A stretch of DNA of 39,216 nt from Candidatus Sysuiplasma jiujiangense (lineage in GTDB: Archaea > Thermoplasmatota > Thermoplasmata > Sysuiplasmatales > Sysuiplasmataceae), in contig JAHEAD010000006.1 of assembly GCA_019721075.1 (NCBI GenBank), forward strand, positions 62,001 through 101,216, written 5' to 3'. The position numbers and the translations under genes were made by a program. Below, in pieces: positions 11,061 to 29,930 of this stretch. The stretch's first letter is position 1, and each line of letters starts with the position of its first letter. The notes beneath the pieces were generated by a model. It had not been told where the DNA came from and did not search any database. It saw only the letters and a program-made list of their open reading frames with translations.

Positions 11061-11142
11061 TCTATTCGGGTTTGACCGGACTTGAACAGTTTAGGCAAGC
11101 CGGATGCAATACCGGCTCGTCTAGCCAGTAGGAAGTGGTAAA

Positions 11143-11598
11143 TTGGCAAAACAAACCGTAGTGCAGGACGCTGCACAAAGTGAGCCAGCGACTGAACGCA
11201 GCCAGCCGGTAGAGCAGAGCAAGGCTCTTGCGACAGTAAGCGTTGTTCACGGCGTGGAGCTGAGAGCTGAGCAGTGGAGCAAAGCACCGGAGCTCAAGGA
11301 TCAGCTTTACGACGGGTACAGCGGTCTGTCCGAGAACCTCGCCGACATGCTTGCAAGCAAGGGCTTCACGGTGAGGGCGGGCAAGAGCTACGTGGGCATC
11401 TACATGGGTGCCACGAGGTTCAAGACCGCCACGCCGAACTTCTTCAGGTCTGAAGAGGAAGTCAGGAAGTTCCTGCTCGAGTCGGAGAACATCCGCTTTG
11501 CGAAGGAGAAAGACCTTCTCATCAACAAGGCGGTCATGGACGGCATACTCAGGCACATAGAGAAGCAGGCTGCCCAGTCGAAGGCGCAAACAGCTTAA
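11143..11598 (+). CDS. Hypothetical protein (151 aa) directly upstream of the structured RNA
   Basis: TTG start after a purine-rich leader, strong GC3 codon bias, followed by a GGGCG/CGCCC hairpin and T-tract. Confidence 0.8.
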   Translation: MAKQTVVQDAAQSEPATERSQPVEQSKALATVSVVHGVELRAEQWSKAPELKDQLYDGYSGLSENLADMLASKGFTVRAGKSYVGIYMGATRFKTATPNFFRSEEEVRKFLLESENIRFAKEKDLLINKAVMDGILRHIEKQAAQSKAQTA

Positions 11599-11908
11599 GG
11601 GCGTCAAAAGCGCCCAAACACCTTATTTTTTGTAATGTCCCCATTTGGGAGAGCCTCCGAGCGGCGGGGACGGGTAGCGCCAATCTTCCAACGGTTCATA
11701 GCATAGATGGATTAGCCGGGGCTATGAATCGTCAACAACCACACAGTCCGCACAGTCGTTAAGCATACGGCGTTATGCGTATGCGGTTGGCTGCATGGAC
11801 GATCAGACATTACAGTCATGACTGCAACAACAGGGAACCGTGGAATACGGTTCACGAGTCGCTGCGGACGGCGGGCTCCGCGGCGGCCCAAAATCACCAC
11901 GCGCCACC

Positions 11909-12262
11909 GTGCATGGGTGCAAGTCAGAAATGGGGTATGCGAGTGTTCTCCGTGAGGTAAGAGGTGAACGGCGGAGAAGCCGTGCGGCAGCACGGCAGAG
12001 ACCTGCGGAGCTGAAAAGGCGGTGAAGCAGGACATCACCGGGACAGTGTCCTGATGCCGGACACGATGTAGCCGTCCGTTACTCGCATGCCAAGCGCGAC
12101 ATTGACGCTCAGATTAGATGTATGGCAATGCTGCTTCGGCAGCCAGACTGAGCTGGCGTACCCAGCGTATCTGCCGGGCAACCGGCAGGTCGAAACCGGG
12201 GTTATTATCAGCCATACGCCGGGCCGAAAGGTCTGGAGGAAACTCCCGGCACCTGCATGCAC
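11909..12262 (+). ncRNA. Circularly permuted RNase P RNA-like catalytic domain
   Basis: P4 AAC[T]CCCGG 12241-49 / CCGGGGTT 12196-203 within GAGGAAACTCC and CGAAA...GTTA; P2 12211-19/12118-26; P3 12220-35; P5 12250-53/11916-19 followed by CAAG; P7 12256-62/11909-15; P15 11923-26/12103-06; P16 11934-45/12080-91. Confidence 0.8.
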
Positions 12263-12265
12263 ACA

Positions 12266-12375
12266 GACTTGATCGGACATATGCGGCGCACAGCATATGC
12301 ACTCTTTCAGTTTCGGCGGTAACATGTTGTTACCACCGGACTTGATCGGACATATGCGGCATACGGCATATGCAC
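12266..12375 (+). repeat. Two 37-nt direct repeats with an internal hairpin, 36 nt apart
   Basis: 12266-12302 and 12339-12375 differ at 3 positions, all in the loop of the CATATGC/GCATATG stem. Confidence 0.9.
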
Positions 12376-12411
12376 AGGCGGTCGCAGTGACCGCATTTTT
12401 TGGGTGATATA

Positions 12412-12786
12412 ACGGACAGCAAACTGGCAAAATTTGCCGTAGAGACGGCATCGTGGGCACACGAAGTGAACGCTGAAGTGGAAGAGGCCATCGGCATACT
12501 CAATTCCGCAGAAATGAGCGATGTTTGGTGGGCAAAGAAACTGGTGCGCAACATAACGGCGGCTGATGGGCCGTCGGACGATGCCGCAAAAACAGGCGAC
12601 ACCGCAAACACGCTGCTCGAAATAGCGTTCTGGTCGGGCTGGCTGAAGGGCGAACAGGACACGCTGAACAGGCTGATGGGGATAGTAGCCATGCTCATGA
12701 TGCCTGACGGTCTGCCTGACGGTCCGCACAGAACGCAGGCAGGAAAGAAAAGCGGCAAAAACGATTTCCTTGAGGGTCTGCGATGA
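12412..12786 (+). CDS. Hypothetical protein, probable ACG (or ATA 12409) start
   Basis: GGTGA-TATA-ACG; open frame TDSKLAKF...EGLR. Confidence 0.7.
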   Translation, partial: TDSKLAKFAVETASWAHEVNAEVEEAIGILNSAEMSDVWWAKKLVRNITAADGPSDDAAKTGDTANTLLEIAFWSGWLKGEQDTLNRLMGIVAMLMMPDGLPDGPHRTQAGKKSGKNDFLEGLR

Positions 12787-12804
12787 CCCTATTTTTGGGT
12801 GAAC

Positions 12805-15029: not shown

Positions 15030-16937
15030 ATGGCGCATACAAGACTCATGAAGCTTTTTGCCGTTATCGCCTCGGTTGTCATCATAGCTGCAGGAGCAGG
15101 ATATGCCCTTCATGTGTACAGCCGGAGAAGTGTTTCACGGCCCAAACCCAAGCCGTTTGGCTATTTCGGTCCACGAGTGGTTGTGAATTCAGGCAGCCAG
15201 ACGGGCAGCATTGCCAACAACACAACCATCAACGTGCAGATATTCTCCGCTGTGCCTTCTGCATTTGCAAAGGCAGGACTTAGCTTCTACAGCATTGCCC
15301 AGGACAATCAGTGGAACAACAGTGTCAACGATGAGCTGCTGAATGCAACGATGCTGCCTGGAAACGCATCGACAGGCAAGTTCTTCCTGTCGACACAGTT
15401 CAATTCAATTGCAAAGGAATGGATGTCCCTTCTCTCACTGGACACGGGAACGAACTACCCTTCACTCACAGTCGAGGCGGTCAAGACAGTCGTGCTGAAC
15501 GGAAGCTTGCTGTTCTACCAGTACTACAACAACATTCCTTTCAATCCTTTCAGCCTGTCCGTTGTCAGCGCAAACAGCACAGTGCTCTCAAACAGCACGC
15601 TTCTCGCATCAACGGGACTGGAGAGCTGGTTTGGCGGCAGCAGTGTCAATCTTTCGAACTATTCTCAGATATCACTGACGAACATCGGTTTCAACCTGAC
15701 GCTTGTCTTTCCCTCTGTACCCATACAGGTCATATCTGCCAATGCTTCTGCAAACGGAGACCTGTCATATTTGCATGCAGGATCCCTCGTTCCTGTCGTT
15801 GTCTCACCTGATAGCTGCTATTGGCTCTACTACTACACCTATCCGAGCACGACGAGCAACACGCTGGAAAAGACGACCTATGCGAACGGAATACTTCCGT
15901 TGCTGGGCGTGCACATAGGCAGGAATGCAGACCAGGGCAATTCACAGATAGTTCTTGGGGCAAATGTCAATATCCAGAATGACACCATCAAACTTACCTC
16001 AAACCAGGTCTACTCCAATCCTTCTGGATCGATAACAACGACAATGAGCACGCAGCCTTCCTTCTCTCACCTGGCAAACGTAACTGTTGGCAACTCAGGA
16101 GGTGGAACAGTTGCCACCCCTGAAGGCATTTCGGAAAAACTGGGAGACAACCACAGCCAAGCACAGAATCTGACAACGGGATTTGCAGGCATCCAGGGTG
16201 TCGAGTATGAATTCCAGCACTACAACAGGTACACCTGCAATTACAGGTATTACTGGGAACAATTCATCTGCCCTCCATACAGGTATCCGCCCCATCTCCT
16301 TTCCCAGACACTTGTTTCGAAGGTCTATGACGGCAACTTCACAATCGGCGAAATTATTCATGTCAACTCAACGGCGGGGCTGAAAGTCACAGGCTCCCCT
16401 GTTTCCATTGCGGTCGCATGGGTCGTACAACACTACCTGCTGCATGATTCCAACGGAAGCGTGCAGCTCAATGCGAGCGGCAGTGGCACCGAATACCAGT
16501 CCTCAACGATATGGGCAATGACCTACGGCTGGCTGAATGCGGCAGATGCATACAAGCAGGCAGAGCAGGCACTGGCAATCTTCTCTTCGGCACTTTCCCT
16601 AGGACTTGCCGTAATAGCCGCCATTGCAGCCGCCAACCCGCTGGATTTTGATGGAGGCGAGGCTGCAATTATTGCCGCTGCAGGCAACACTATAGTCAAG
16701 GCAACGTCGCTTGCAGCCACGATACTTGGGCAGTTCTCGACCATAAGCTCCGTTTCCGGCAGCACCGCAATAACGGCTAGCTGGTGGTTCAGCAATTACC
16801 CTTTAGTCTCACTAGGTTCCAATTACACTATGCCTTTTTATGAATCATCCAGCGGTGTCATGCTCACTCTGCCAAACGGCAACAGCTACTTCTTCTATGC
16901 ACCTGAAGACTATCTGAATGCAACATCGATTGTTTAA
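15030..16937 (+). CDS. Secreted or membrane-anchored S/T/N-rich protein (635 aa)
   Basis: N-terminal TM/signal segment, many N-x-S/T sequons, hydrophobic helical pair near the C-terminus. Confidence 0.85.
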   Translation: MAHTRLMKLFAVIASVVIIAAGAGYALHVYSRRSVSRPKPKPFGYFGPRVVVNSGSQTGSIANNTTINVQIFSAVPSAFAKAGLSFYSIAQDNQWNNSVNDELLNATMLPGNASTGKFFLSTQFNSIAKEWMSLLSLDTGTNYPSLTVEAVKTVVLNGSLLFYQYYNNIPFNPFSLSVVSANSTVLSNSTLLASTGLESWFGGSSVNLSNYSQISLTNIGFNLTLVFPSVPIQVISANASANGDLSYLHAGSLVPVVVSPDSCYWLYYYTYPSTTSNTLEKTTYANGILPLLGVHIGRNADQGNSQIVLGANVNIQNDTIKLTSNQVYSNPSGSITTTMSTQPSFSHLANVTVGNSGGGTVATPEGISEKLGDNHSQAQNLTTGFAGIQGVEYEFQHYNRYTCNYRYYWEQFICPPYRYPPHLLSQTLVSKVYDGNFTIGEIIHVNSTAGLKVTGSPVSIAVAWVVQHYLLHDSNGSVQLNASGSGTEYQSSTIWAMTYGWLNAADAYKQAEQALAIFSSALSLGLAVIAAIAAANPLDFDGGEAAIIAAAGNTIVKATSLAATILGQFSTISSVSGSTAITASWWFSNYPLVSLGSNYTMPFYESSSGVMLTLPNGNSYFFYAPEDYLNATSIV

Positions 16938-26323: not shown

Positions 26324-26553
26324 GGACGTGTCATCCGTTAAAGGATATTTAGCGGTGACCGGGGGAAGGGCAATGTCCTTCCTGCGAAGCAAGTCTTATC
26401 ATATCGTCTTACCATTGCGGCGGCGATGACGGCTGAACGGATTATTCATGGGCGCATAAAGAATCCGCCGTCCATTGGCAACGGGGCGAATGGAATGAGA
26501 AATGCAGAAGGGGCGTTAAGAAGTACAATAGCGGAACAGTGAAAGGAGATACA

Positions 26554-29500
26554 ATGCAATCGAATCTGCATGGAAGAGAGAACGATGCTGAACTCGAGGT
26601 TGCATTCGAAAGGAAGCTGAATGAGATTGTGAGAAACCTGAAAACGCACTTCAAAAGCGTGGATCGTTTTCAGGATATCATAGCCAATTCAAGAAAGTAC
26701 AGGGCTGACGATCTCATAGAGGGACAGAAGCCTGAATCACTCGTCCGGCAATTTGTGGTCGATCCCCTTCTCGAGTTCCTGCGCTTTTCGTCTATCAGGG
26801 AAACAACGATGCCCACGCCGCACGGCATCAGGGCACCTGATTATTTTGTCAGCCCGGTGAGTGCCGACGATCCTAGACTCTACGTTGAGGTGGAACCAAT
26901 GAACGCAGACCTCCGAAGGGAGGGAGAGGGCATTTCACAAATCAGGGAATGGCTTTTTTCACGCGCCTCAAAGACGGACTACGGAATGGCAACGAACGGC
27001 ATCGAATGGATCCTCGTGAAATTCGACAAATCCCTGCTGGATGTGCGGGAAGTCCGGCGCTTTGACCTCAGGAAGTCATTTCTGAAGGCGATGAACGCCG
27101 CGTCTCTCCTCGATGACAAGGAACTGGCAGGGGAACGGCAAGGTTTTCTTCGCCTGCATGCGGAAAATATTCTCGACTTCCTTTCTGCAAATGAATTAAG
27201 GGTCGAGCAGAAGAAGGAGGAGATTTCAGAGTCGTTCTACGATCATTACGTCAGAGCCGTATTCGGAAGAGACGTAAATGGGGGAAAAATCGAAGGCGGC
27301 TGTCTTCTAGATCAGATAAACGCTCCGGCGCATGCAAACGGCGAGAATGAGAAAAACCTGTTCGCCGTCATTCTGATGAACAGATTGATTTTCATAAAAT
27401 TCCTGGAGGAAAAAGGGATAGTGGACAGGAATCTGCTGAACAGCATTTTCGACCAGTACAGATCATCAAGGCTGCCGTCCACCTTCTACGCATCTTTGCT
27501 TAAGCCGCTGTTCTACAATGTTTTCAACACTCCCGTGAATGAAAGGCCGGAGCACGTTGCGGGCAACCCTGTCTTTGCCAGTCTGCCGTATCTCAACGGC
27601 GGACTGTTCAGGGAGGTGATACGCTTCGAATCTGAATACGATGTCGGCAACGACGGCATAGAACTTGTCGTCAGGGATCTGCTTGAAAGGTACCGCTTCC
27701 AGCTCAAGACCGGCGAAGGCATAAATCCCGACATCCTGGGCTATATTTTCGAGAAGACTATAAACTTCATTTCGGGCACGGGAAACATGGGTCAGAAAAT
27801 GAAGGGTGCATATTACACACCGAATGATGTTGTCGAGTTCATCGTGTCCAGTACGCTGGTGCCGGTTGTTCATGAGCGGCTGACCCGGACGTTGAGAGAG
27901 GCGGGCTTCGACGAGTCCGTTCTCTCCCGGTGCGCTACATTGAGCGATATCCTGGATCCCGCGAATCTGCCGACGGACAGGAACCTGTTGAGGAAAATGA
28001 TAGACGAAGTGGAAAGGATCACTGTGCTGGATCCTGCTTGCGGTTCCGGCCACTTCCTGACGGCAATCCTTTCGGAGTTTGTCCGCATAAAGGAATATCT
28101 GATAAAAGCCGCCGGCGGCAGGGCCGACAGATACAGGATAAAGAGAGACATCATCTCGCAGAACATCTTCGGCGTGGACATAGATCCGAATGCTGTTGAG
28201 ATAGCCAGGCTGCGCCTGTGGCTGTCCCTCATAGACGAAGTAAAAGGCGAACGGCATGTTGAAGCGCTGCCGAACATAGATTTCAATATCATCGCGGGAA
28301 ACAGCCTCATAGGCCTCAGGATGCCTTCCACGGAGAGGCTGACCCTGACCCTGTGGAACAAAGATGCGGTCGGCGAACTTTTCATGGGTTTGTCTTCGGT
28401 ACATCCGCTAAAGGCGGCAAGCATCAGGAACAGCATTCTGGCGGGCAGATGGCATCCGTGATTGGCGGGTACAGGAGCCTCATAGACATCTACGCCGGGG
28501 AACACGGAAAGAACGCGATAGAACTCAGACGAATCATGCGGCAAATCAGGGACAGACTGTACGAAGTGCTCAACACGTATTATCTGTCGATGCTGTCCAG
28601 GGAGGGCAACACGGGCAAAGAGAAATTCAGGGAGATATCGAAAGAGTTTGGGCGCTTGAATCCGTTTCACTGGTTTGTCGACTTCAACAAGGCAATTGAT
28701 CGGAGCGGTTTTGACGTCGTTCTCGGCAATCCGCCTTACATAGAGGACAGGAACTACAGCGCGATCGAGATCGCGATAATCCGATGCATGAAAAGAGGCC
28801 CGAAGAACGGCGGCAAGCCGTCCGTGCCTCTGCTCTACGCATCGAAGGACTGCGGAAACACTTACGCCTATTTCATCGAGCGGGCGCTCGATCTCGCCAG
28901 ACCGGAAGGCAGGATGTCATTGATAGTCCCGGTATCCCTTGTTTCGACGGACAGGATGGGCAGTATCAGGAGGTTCGTTCACGAAAATTCATCGTCGGCA
29001 TGGTATTACAACTTCGACGACAGGCCTGGGAAAATCTTCTCAGGTCTGGAGCACTGCAGATCCACCATCCTCGTTGCAGAGAAGGGCGGCCGGTTGAAAA
29101 GACTCGAGGTTTCAGGATACAACAGATGGCGAACCGCCGACAGATATAAGCTTTTCAACAGGATTCGGACCGTTCCGTGGCAGGCGGATGAGCCCGGAGC
29201 GCTTATTCCGAAACTCGGCAGTCCCTTGGAACTGGAGATATTGAAACGGCTCATGGAATCCAGCGAGGGGAAAAGACTCGGCGATTTCTGCGCAACGGAC
29301 GGCGTGCCCATATGGTACCACAACGCACCACAGTACTGGATACATGCGCACAGGGACGGCGCAGTGCCGAAGGTGGAATACTATTCCGAATACAGGGAGA
29401 ACGACGGTGTGATAACGCCCCTGAATCTGGAGGACGTGTCCATTTCGGATCATTACAAAAAATTGGCATTCCCCGAAAACAAGGCGGATGCAGTGATCGC

Positions 29501-29930
29501 ACTGCTGTGCTCATCAATATTTTACTGGTGGTTCACGATATGGTCGGACGGCAGGGACCTTCTCGATTCTCACATAAAACAGTTCCCTCTGAATCTGGAT
29601 AAATTGAGCAAGCAGGATGGAACGGAGCTCACCAGACTAGTCGATGAACTGACGGACAGTTTCGAACGCCATTCGGCCGAAGTAATCAACGTCAGGAAAA
29701 AAGGGACGAAGGAAAGCTATGTTATAAAAATAAAGACAATTAACACGATCGATTCATACGACATCATCAGGAAAATCGACTCTGCACTATTCAACATCAT
29801 AGGGCTTAACGAAGAGCAGTCCGAATTCTTGGCGAAATTTGACTTATCCTTCAGGATGCAGAAGGGAGAAGGTTCAATACTTGAAGATTTTACGGATCGT
29901 CCGATTTTGGATAGAGAAGGAGAGACGTAG
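26554..29930 (+). pseudogene. Type IIG (Eco57I-like) fused restriction-modification enzyme, split near 28445-28461
   Basis: N-terminal PDY...VEVE nuclease-like domain, GAYYTP and motif I VLDPACGSGHFL in 26554-28461; motif IV GNPPY and TRD-like C-terminus in 28449-29930. Confidence 0.85.

Follow-up and report, generated by a model that had tools for sequence, protein, structure and literature searches.

RNase P RNA is among the few universal ribozymes and trims new tRNAs. The natural RNase P RNA genes described so far all have, to our knowledge, one 5'-to-3' order, and no permuted RNase P RNA from nature turned up in a full-text literature search. Natural permutation is known from other RNA genes, such as the two-piece transfer-messenger RNA (tmRNA) and the permuted signal recognition particle (SRP) RNA of Thermoproteus, and archaeal permuted RNA genes are repaired by cutting and circularisation that depend on a bulge-helix-bulge (BHB) motif. 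Here we describe a 354-nt stretch (11909-12262, + strand) of a 39,216-nt window of DNA from the archaeon Candidatus Sysuiplasma jiujiangense, whose genome assembly has 2.29 Mb and is 97% complete (the window is G000:C52:62001-101216, and positions are given within it). The stretch is probably the gene of a folded non-coding RNA in which the parts of the catalytic half of RNase P RNA occur in a rotated order. We consider it fairly likely that this RNA is derived from RNase P and represents a circularly permuted catalytic-domain RNA.

Typical RNase P RNAs are reported to have a 3-nt linker between P5 and P15 and a P2 helix of 6-7 bp, and the type T RNase P RNA of the Thermoproteaceae keeps the catalytic (C) domain while most of the specificity (S) domain is absent (PMC3579882). 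Isolated C-domains remain able to cleave when the S-domain is absent, and their affinity for the substrate is lower (PMC11143913). The permuted tRNA genes are structured RNA genes in which circular permutation is found in nature (PMC3978253). Circular permutation has also been engineered in the B. subtilis RNA cp240, whose ends lie between P5 and P7, whose natural ends are joined by a loop and which folds 15-fold faster (PMC8457005). Permuted constructs of the human H1 RNA were inactive in cis (PMC13022451) and the camelpox RNase P-like RNA was inactive on pre-tRNA in vitro (PMC3001073).

Anatomy of the putative 354-nt RNA

All the motifs and helices that a sequence-only reading of this DNA had listed were recovered on the + strand, and their coordinates were re-derived. 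Read from 5' to 3', the parts are as follows.

11909..11919, + strand: 3' strands of the closing stem, with P7-like GUGCAUG (11909-15) and P5-like GGUG (11916-19), as paired in the minimum free energy (MFE) fold
11920..11933, + strand: junction resembling conserved region IV (CR-IV), with CAAG at 11920-23, which gives a 3-nt CAA linker and the start of the P15 5' strand GUCA (11923-26), then the loop GAAAU; the archaeal consensus here is GGaGCAAGuccaAaua
11934-45/12080-91, + strand: P16-like 12-bp helix of 10 Watson-Crick and 2 G.U pairs (11 nt at 91% in the inverted-repeat listing), enclosing a 134-nt multi-branched insertion (11946-12079)
12092..12119, + strand: 3' side of L15 (AAGCGCGACAU, without GGU), the P15 3' strand UGAC (12103-06, 4 bp with GUCA) and the 13-nt J15/2 GCUCAGAUUAGAU (12107-19), with no P18
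12120..12126, + strand: P2 3' strand GUAUGGC, which pairs with 12211-17
12127..12189, + strand: three hairpins in the P19 position, at 12130-43 (UUCG loop), 12143-56 and 12171-88 (GCAA loop)
12190..12204, + strand: CR-V-like region, with J2/4 UCGAAA, the P4 3' strand CCGGGGUU (12196-12203) and A12204
12205..12210, + strand: 6-nt linker UUAUCA in place of helix P1
12211..12217, + strand: P2 5' strand GCCAUAC, which completes a 7-bp P2
12219..12236, + strand: P3-like 7-bp hairpin with a GAAA loop; GAGGAAA begins with the G that ends this hairpin, which is also the archaeal consensus
12236..12249, + strand: CR-I-like GAGGAAAC-U-CCCGG, with the P4 5' strand at 12241-43 and 12245-49 and the bulged U12244
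12250..12262, + strand: 5' strands of the closing stem, with P5 CACC (12250-53, paired with GGUG), a UG bulge (12254-55) and P7-like CAUGCAC (12256-62, paired with GUGCAUG)

The nested helices of the sequence-only reading are predicted by RNAfold alone, namely the 11-bp closing stem (11909-19/12250-62), the 12-bp arm (11934-45/12080-91), P2 (12120-26/12211-17), the three hairpins and the GAAA-capped P3. P4 was assessed by its pairing potential, where AAC-U-CCCGG (12241-49) can pair with CCGGG-GUU-A (12196-12204) to give 3+5 bp with a single bulged U and an A on the 3' strand. The MFE of the + strand was found to be -156.1 kcal/mol (z -4.08) and that of the - strand -136.3 kcal/mol (z -3.45), so the + fold is better by 20 kcal/mol. 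About five G.U pairs in P16, P3 and P2 fit the + strand only. These strand-specific G.U pairs, the fold energy and a terminator-like site downstream suggest that the RNA is encoded on the + strand.

The set used for comparison consisted of the Rfam alignment of the host gene and alignments of 28-31 members of the class, with 31 archaeal RNAs in all. In the archaeal pattern the final G of P3 opens GAGGAAA and there are 13 nt to the 4-bp P5. The P5 3' strand is then followed by CAA, a 4-bp P15, a 5-nt loop and P16, and the P15 3' strand is followed by GC, a 12-14-nt J15/2, the 3' strand of a 6-bp P2, ACAGAA, the 8-nt P4 3' strand and an A. The candidate has the same chain with the same lengths, begun at P7'/P5' and closed at P5/P7, with a 6-nt loop for P1 and with the S-domain absent. 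For example, the end of P3 is separated from P5 by 13 nt, equal to the distance in RF00373 (archaeal type A RNase P RNA), the CAA linker has 3 nt, P15 has 4 bp, J15/2 has 13 nt (12-14 nt in alignment A1), P2 has 7 bp and an A follows P4'. The topology and the junction lengths of P2, P3, P5 and P15 were observed to agree with the known RNAs after rotation only. CR-I is represented by GAGGAAA-N-U directly 3' of P3 (12236-12244), scoring 14.1 of a possible 14.2 bits, and CR-IV together with J5/15 is represented by GGUG-CAA-GUCA at 11916-26.

The pairing of P4 is kept with different residues, the candidate having AAC/GUU and CCCGG/CCGGG where the host RNA has AAG/CUU and CCCCU/AGGGG. P4a covaries among the known RNAs as well (AGG/CCU, AAU/AUU and ACG/CGU), and in the nine bacterial type A genes AAG/CUU with CCGGG/CCCGG was found in most. 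The helices of the candidate differ in sequence from those of the host RNA and the candidate is therefore no recent copy of the host gene. The J15/2 of the candidate (AGAUUAGAU) resembles the bacterial AGAUAGAU type more closely than the AGUCGAAU of the host's class; bacterial J18/2 is either AGAUAGAU or AGAUGAAU.

The class also includes known RNase P RNAs with insertions in the P19 position. In many RNAs of the class P2 and J2/4 are separated by an additional hairpin, mostly of 10-15 nt and of about 75 nt in L032 (G069), and this hairpin was also seen in L023, L027, L037, L040 and further members (alignment A1, columns 80-152).

Scores of the rotated arrangement and its conservation

A structure-aware descriptor of the rotated order was built from the 31 known archaeal RNase P RNAs only. 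It combines position scores of the junction blocks (alignments A1 and A2 only), generic pair log-odds for P2, P3, P4, P5 and P15 and the consensus junction lengths, and P7 and P16 are not counted. The candidate scored 59.2 bits, at exactly the assignment of the sequence-only reading. The largest positive terms come from CR-I (14.1 bits), P4 (13.6), P2 (10.6), P5 (8.1), P15 (7.1) and P3 (6.1), with further contributions from CAA (5.4), UUA (5.2), GC (3.4), the 5' loop of L15 (0.9) and J2/3 (0.6). Negative terms come from the 3' side of L15 (-7.3 bits), J2/4 (-4.9) and J15/2 (-3.6).

Among 1000 dinucleotide shuffles the mean score was 3.8 bits (sd 6.1) and the maximum 31.5, and the reverse complement of the candidate scored -8.8. 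The candidate ranked first when both strands of the whole genome were scanned (4.58 M positions, 9236 anchors), with a runner-up of 35.9 bits. When 500 decoy motif sets of equal information were scored on the candidate, the maximum was 34.9 and none of the 500 reached 59.2. The maximum was 33.9 at 33 viral loci chosen to carry the CR-I and CR-V motifs and 30.3 at 18 loci around homologues of a neighbouring protein in related genomes. The 31 archaeal RNAs scored 17.6 or less in their native order and 82.8-117.6 when rotated in silico, these RNAs being the training set. Nine type A RNase P RNAs from bacteria, which were not used for training, scored 53.2-72.8 when rotated in silico, and pooling the bacterial blocks into the descriptor raised the candidate to 62.0. 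The candidate scores like a genuine RNase P RNA of another domain of life, above all the background tested.

The candidate is single-copy in its own genome and lies in a gap of about 800 nt (11600-12400) between + strand open reading frames (ORFs). Logan contigs of four runs were compared with the window over 11100-12800. None of the 23 runs listed for the stretch is recorded as RNA, and parts of the element occur in mine-drainage and mine-tailings runs of 7 studies. The contig X6, which has 9322 nt and comes from another study, is collinear with the window over 11100-12292 and the rotated order is therefore confirmed in an independent assembly. X6 has 25 substitutions and 2 single-base indels at 11100-11600 and 7 differences at 11601-11871. 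In the 421 nt of 11872-12292 it has a single difference, 12161 C>U, which is located in an unpaired spacer between the P19-position hairpins and was also found in X12. A 73-nt repeat unit is deleted at 12293-12365 (joint 12292/12366), followed by 5 differences and a 12-nt deletion at 12366-12800. Upstream there are 32 changes in 772 bases against 1 in 421 at the candidate, where about 13 would be expected at the pooled flank rate and about 5 at the downstream rate. The 73-nt deletion breaks two overlapping ORFs, 12035-12460(-) and 12118-12345(+), neither of which has a Pfam match. Taken from these comparisons, the candidate region seems to be non-coding and conserved, as the pattern of changes suggests.

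Counter-evidence and other explanations

A number of observations weigh against an RNase P origin, and the first of them concern the RNA itself. J2/4 UCGAAA matches ACAGAA at 3 of 6 positions, and ACAGAA is present in all 40 known RNAs (31 archaeal and 9 bacterial), with 28 of 28 rows in alignment A1. A looser consensus of J2/4 across the three domains is, we assume, ACNNNANNNNGNNUA, and the candidate would fit it at five of six positions. The 3' side of L15 has no GGU, and G51 and T52 are invariant in A1. The S-domain (P7-P12 with CR-II and CR-III) is absent and both ends of the RNA are at P7; in its flanks, which are less conserved and carry an indel, neither covariance models nor hidden Markov models (HMMs) gave a match. 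Together the missing conserved features cost 15.8 bits in the descriptor (-15.8). The proposal of a circularly permuted RNase P catalytic domain without P1 is supported in part, by the anatomy and the descriptor score, while ACAGAA, the GGU of L15 and the S-domain are lacking.

Sequence-only and linear covariance tests form a second group. Rfam at gathering thresholds gave 0 matches in the whole window, and in E-value mode 11400-12600 gave two chance-level matches to other families. RF00373 and RF00010 found the real gene and noise only when run on the candidate's own genome at E<=10. An HMM of the 31 RNase P RNAs used with nhmmer at E<=100 did not match the candidate, and a rotated sequence-only profile scored 13.8 against 11.3 +/- 5.7 for shuffles. 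The candidate was not among the 20 best window matches of R1 and R2, the covariance models of the two halves of the gene that are left contiguous by the rotation. In short-word BLAST against the 31 RNAs the shared words were mostly non-homologous. The primary-sequence likeness to RNase P is weak. A missing Rfam gathering score (CL00002) is to be expected of a rotated gene, and linear methods are blind to the long-range pairs of P2, P4 and P5 and penalise compensatory change. That linear models would tend to miss the candidate had been anticipated from the sequence, and the Rfam RNase P models were indeed found to have no match in the window.

The remaining points concern the strength of the scores and of the conservation. 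The candidate was already known when the descriptor and its ranges were drawn up. The score outside CR-I falls only about 4-fold per 5 bits among random anchors, where 174 of 8064 reach 10 bits, 36 reach 15, 12 reach 20 and 3 reach 25. By extrapolation the chance is about 1e-11 to 1e-10 per position, which corresponds to about 5e-4 per genome and to the order of 1 per 10-Gb scan. As this null tail is shallow, the descriptor alone cannot exclude a lucky find. Counting the 7-bp P7 and the 12-bp P16 would make a chance match in random sequence several orders of magnitude rarer, yet helices occur in any structured RNA. The 5-bp part of P4 is cheap because CCGGG occurs four times in the RNA. The conservation is real but not clean because the downstream gene is little changed too (5 of 435). 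In addition, homologues of the candidate were not found in any search.

These points leave room for an unrelated structured RNA encoded by the island, such as a leader, a regulatory RNA or a replication-associated RNA, whose four-way junction resembles the RNase P core by chance in a very large scan. Such a chance resemblance would account for the negative sequence-only and linear tests and for the lack of a family, and it is made easier by a CCGG-rich sequence, by the shallow null tail and by a net motif score that amounts to 13.8 bits after mismatches, the rest being derived from helices. However, the candidate stands 23 bits above the best of the 4.58 million genome positions and above all 500 decoy sets on its own helices, its score lies within the range of real RNase P RNAs outside the training set, and five of its junctions have the lengths of the archaeal consensus. 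We therefore regard a chance resemblance as rather unlikely.

A second explanation is that the RNA is derived from RNase P and is no longer a ribozyme, so that it would be a decoy or scaffold for RNA-binding proteins, such as those of the host's RNase P, or would have a structural role in the element. Such a relic is favoured by the anatomy that also speaks for an active descendant and by the loss of the invariant J2/4 ACAGAA, the GGU of L15 and the whole S-domain. On the other hand, the parts of the active site are the best kept, as can be seen from GAGGAAA, the bulged U, the geometry of P4, the CAA linker and the A-rich end of J2/4. A decoy for proteins that bind the S-domain is excluded because the S-domain is absent. 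Two presumed partners of a decoy, Pop5 (PF01900) and Rpp30 (PF01876), had no match in the 97%-complete host genome with the Pfam models; in archaeal control genomes the same models found PF01900 in 4 of 4 and PF01876 in 3 of 4. A relic of this kind appears unlikely to us. A role as DNA (a replication origin, a protein-binding region or a recombination site, with an incidental RNA-like fold) is very improbable, for although the 800-nt gap has direct and inverted repeats, a 73-nt unit of variable copy number and an MCM-like helicase gene 7.5 kb off, the repeats are outside the 354-nt core, which itself has G.U pairs, a + fold that is 20 kcal/mol better, hairpins capped by GNRA and UUCG tetraloops and no AT-rich unwinding stretch in 11909-12262.

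As an explanation of the whole, we give about even chances to a permuted RNase P descendant that would rebuild the active-site scaffold and act on RNA. That the 354-nt RNA is catalytically active is a tentative suggestion, towards which we lean less than away from it.

The island, the proposed action and known systems

The host's canonical archaeal RNase P RNA gene is located on the same contig, 43 kb away (G000:C52:30531-30823, 190 bits), and no nucleotide similarity was found between it and the candidate. The island around the candidate contains ORFans, an MCM-like helicase gene 7.5 kb from the candidate, an MmeI/Eco57I-type restriction-modification system and an AbiEii toxin gene (toxin-antitoxin), and it also encodes UvrD-like and AAA ATPases and a DDE transposase. 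The sequence-only reading had spoken of an archaeal mobile element. That the host is archaeal is supported by the RNase P RNA of this contig, which is of archaeal kind, and by the MCM-like helicase, and mobility is plausible because the island combines ORFans, helicases, restriction-modification, toxin-antitoxin and a transposase, though it is not proven. The MmeI/Eco57I-like gene consists of two overlapping ORFs (26539-28461 and 28353-29930) and is possibly split by a frameshift. Two weak second matches to RF00373, of 37 bits each, were noticed in other genomes (G031:C108:2415-2573 and G012:C7:13-136) and these may be fragments or paralogues; the former lies 1.5 kb from the real RNase P RNA gene of that genome.

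Two further features lie downstream of the candidate.

12266..12375, + strand: 37-nt direct repeats with a CAUAUGC hairpin, spaced 73 nt and probably outside the core
12378..12401, + strand: terminator-like hairpin and T-run, likely the 3' end of the transcription unit

Each of the two 37-nt repeats holds a CAUAUGC-N8-GCAUAUG hairpin, with another hairpin between them, and a similar GCAUACG hairpin was noticed upstream at about 11762-11785. A recurring intergenic signal is found at 12394-12415 and 12791-12800, where a hairpin and AUUUUU(U)GGGU are followed by GAUAUAAC; it has the look of a terminator set directly against the TATA-like box of the next promoter. The X6 contig has two further matches to 12394-12415.

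Relatives of the candidate were sought in several collections. BLAST in 60 relatives gave no match, blastn in phages and plasmids gave no match to the candidate, and the covariance model R3 (12103-12254) gave noise only (E=0.86) in 150 genomes of the class. Motif matches in viral contigs (1 and 32) were rejected as P4 pairing was absent or the sequence was coding-like. Nine matches in genome contigs were rejected with P4 complementarity in none, one of them (L012) having a real bacterial RNase P gene, and six matches in metagenome contigs were rejected with none complementary.

Relatives of neighbouring proteins were sought as well. The 647-aa ORF has 1 relative among 5.8 billion proteins and the version on X6 is only 86% identical to that of the window, and no relatives of the 151-aa and 128-aa neighbours were found among viral contigs. 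Among 300 other genomes of the class, 21 contain homologues of a 635-aa ORFan (15030-16937), with 24-53% identity, and their neighbourhoods always differ. These neighbourhoods were found to have no other gene in common and no R3 match, and their descriptor scores were 30.3 or less. A second, broken copy of this ORFan is located at G000:C34:15662-17332, with 75-89% identity and one in-frame TGA.

If the RNA is a permuted descendant of RNase P, its gene would start with the 3' half of the C domain (P5'/P7', CAA, P15/P16, J15/2, P2', J2/4 and P4'). A 6-nt loop would replace P1, after which the 5' half would follow (P2, P3, GAGGAAA-N-U-P4, P5 and P7). The ends of the RNA would be placed where the absent S-domain would sit, with the 134-nt branched arm in P16 and the three hairpins in the P19 position as additions. 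The RNA would be transcribed from the + strand with other island genes, and its fold may be a four-way junction that P5/P7 closes. P4 would pair as a pseudoknot with a bulged U and rebuild the RNase P active-site scaffold, and the RNA would act on RNA, either alone or with host RNase P proteins. Both the S-domain, which reads the T-loop, and the GGU of L15, which reads the CCA end, are missing and therefore a substrate would have to be recognised otherwise, and the inserted arm or the flanks may serve for this.

A bolder proposal, which we hold to be improbable, is a natural permuted RNase P-type ribozyme without an S-domain on an archaeal mobile element, where the 134-nt arm and the flanking hairpins would replace the tRNA-reading modules and the ribozyme would cut a non-tRNA target such as transcripts of the host, of a rival element or of its own. 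If true, such a ribozyme would be the natural counterpart of the engineered guide-linked RNase P ribozymes and possibly a member of a wider rotated class in archaeal viruses. More generally, a natural rotated copy that is reduced to the catalytic domain and lies on a mobile element beside the normal gene of the host would mean that nature can re-wire the RNase P catalytic core and put it to new uses, that mobile elements recruit the RNase P ribozyme scaffold for their own ends and that covariance models overlook such rotated genes. Furthermore, the minimal RNase P active site could be studied on such a compact and natural scaffold, in which P5/P7 forms the closure and P1 is a loop.

No BHB motif was seen by eye beside the closing stem of the candidate. 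The candidate shares P2, P3, P4 with the bulged U, P5, P15/P16 and the absence of P18 with the archaeal type A RNase P RNA (RF00373). It differs from this RNA in being rotated, in having a 6-nt loop for P1, no P8-P12 S-domain, UCGAAA in J2/4 and no GGU in L15, and in the 134-nt insertion of P16. In the type T RNA, as reported, the order is normal and P1 is present, P2 has 3 bp, P5 and P15 are linked by 2 nt and the universally conserved positions of J2/4 and J15/2 are kept (PMC3579882), whereas the candidate is permuted and has a 7-bp P2, a 3-nt linker and a deviant J2/4. The RNase P-like RNA of camelpox resembles the candidate in that a virus or element encodes it in addition to the host enzyme, but it belongs to a eukaryotic virus and the passages that describe it mention no permutation (PMC3001073). 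The topology of cp240 is almost that of the candidate, with the difference that cp240 is a laboratory construct in which the S-domain is kept (PMC8457005).

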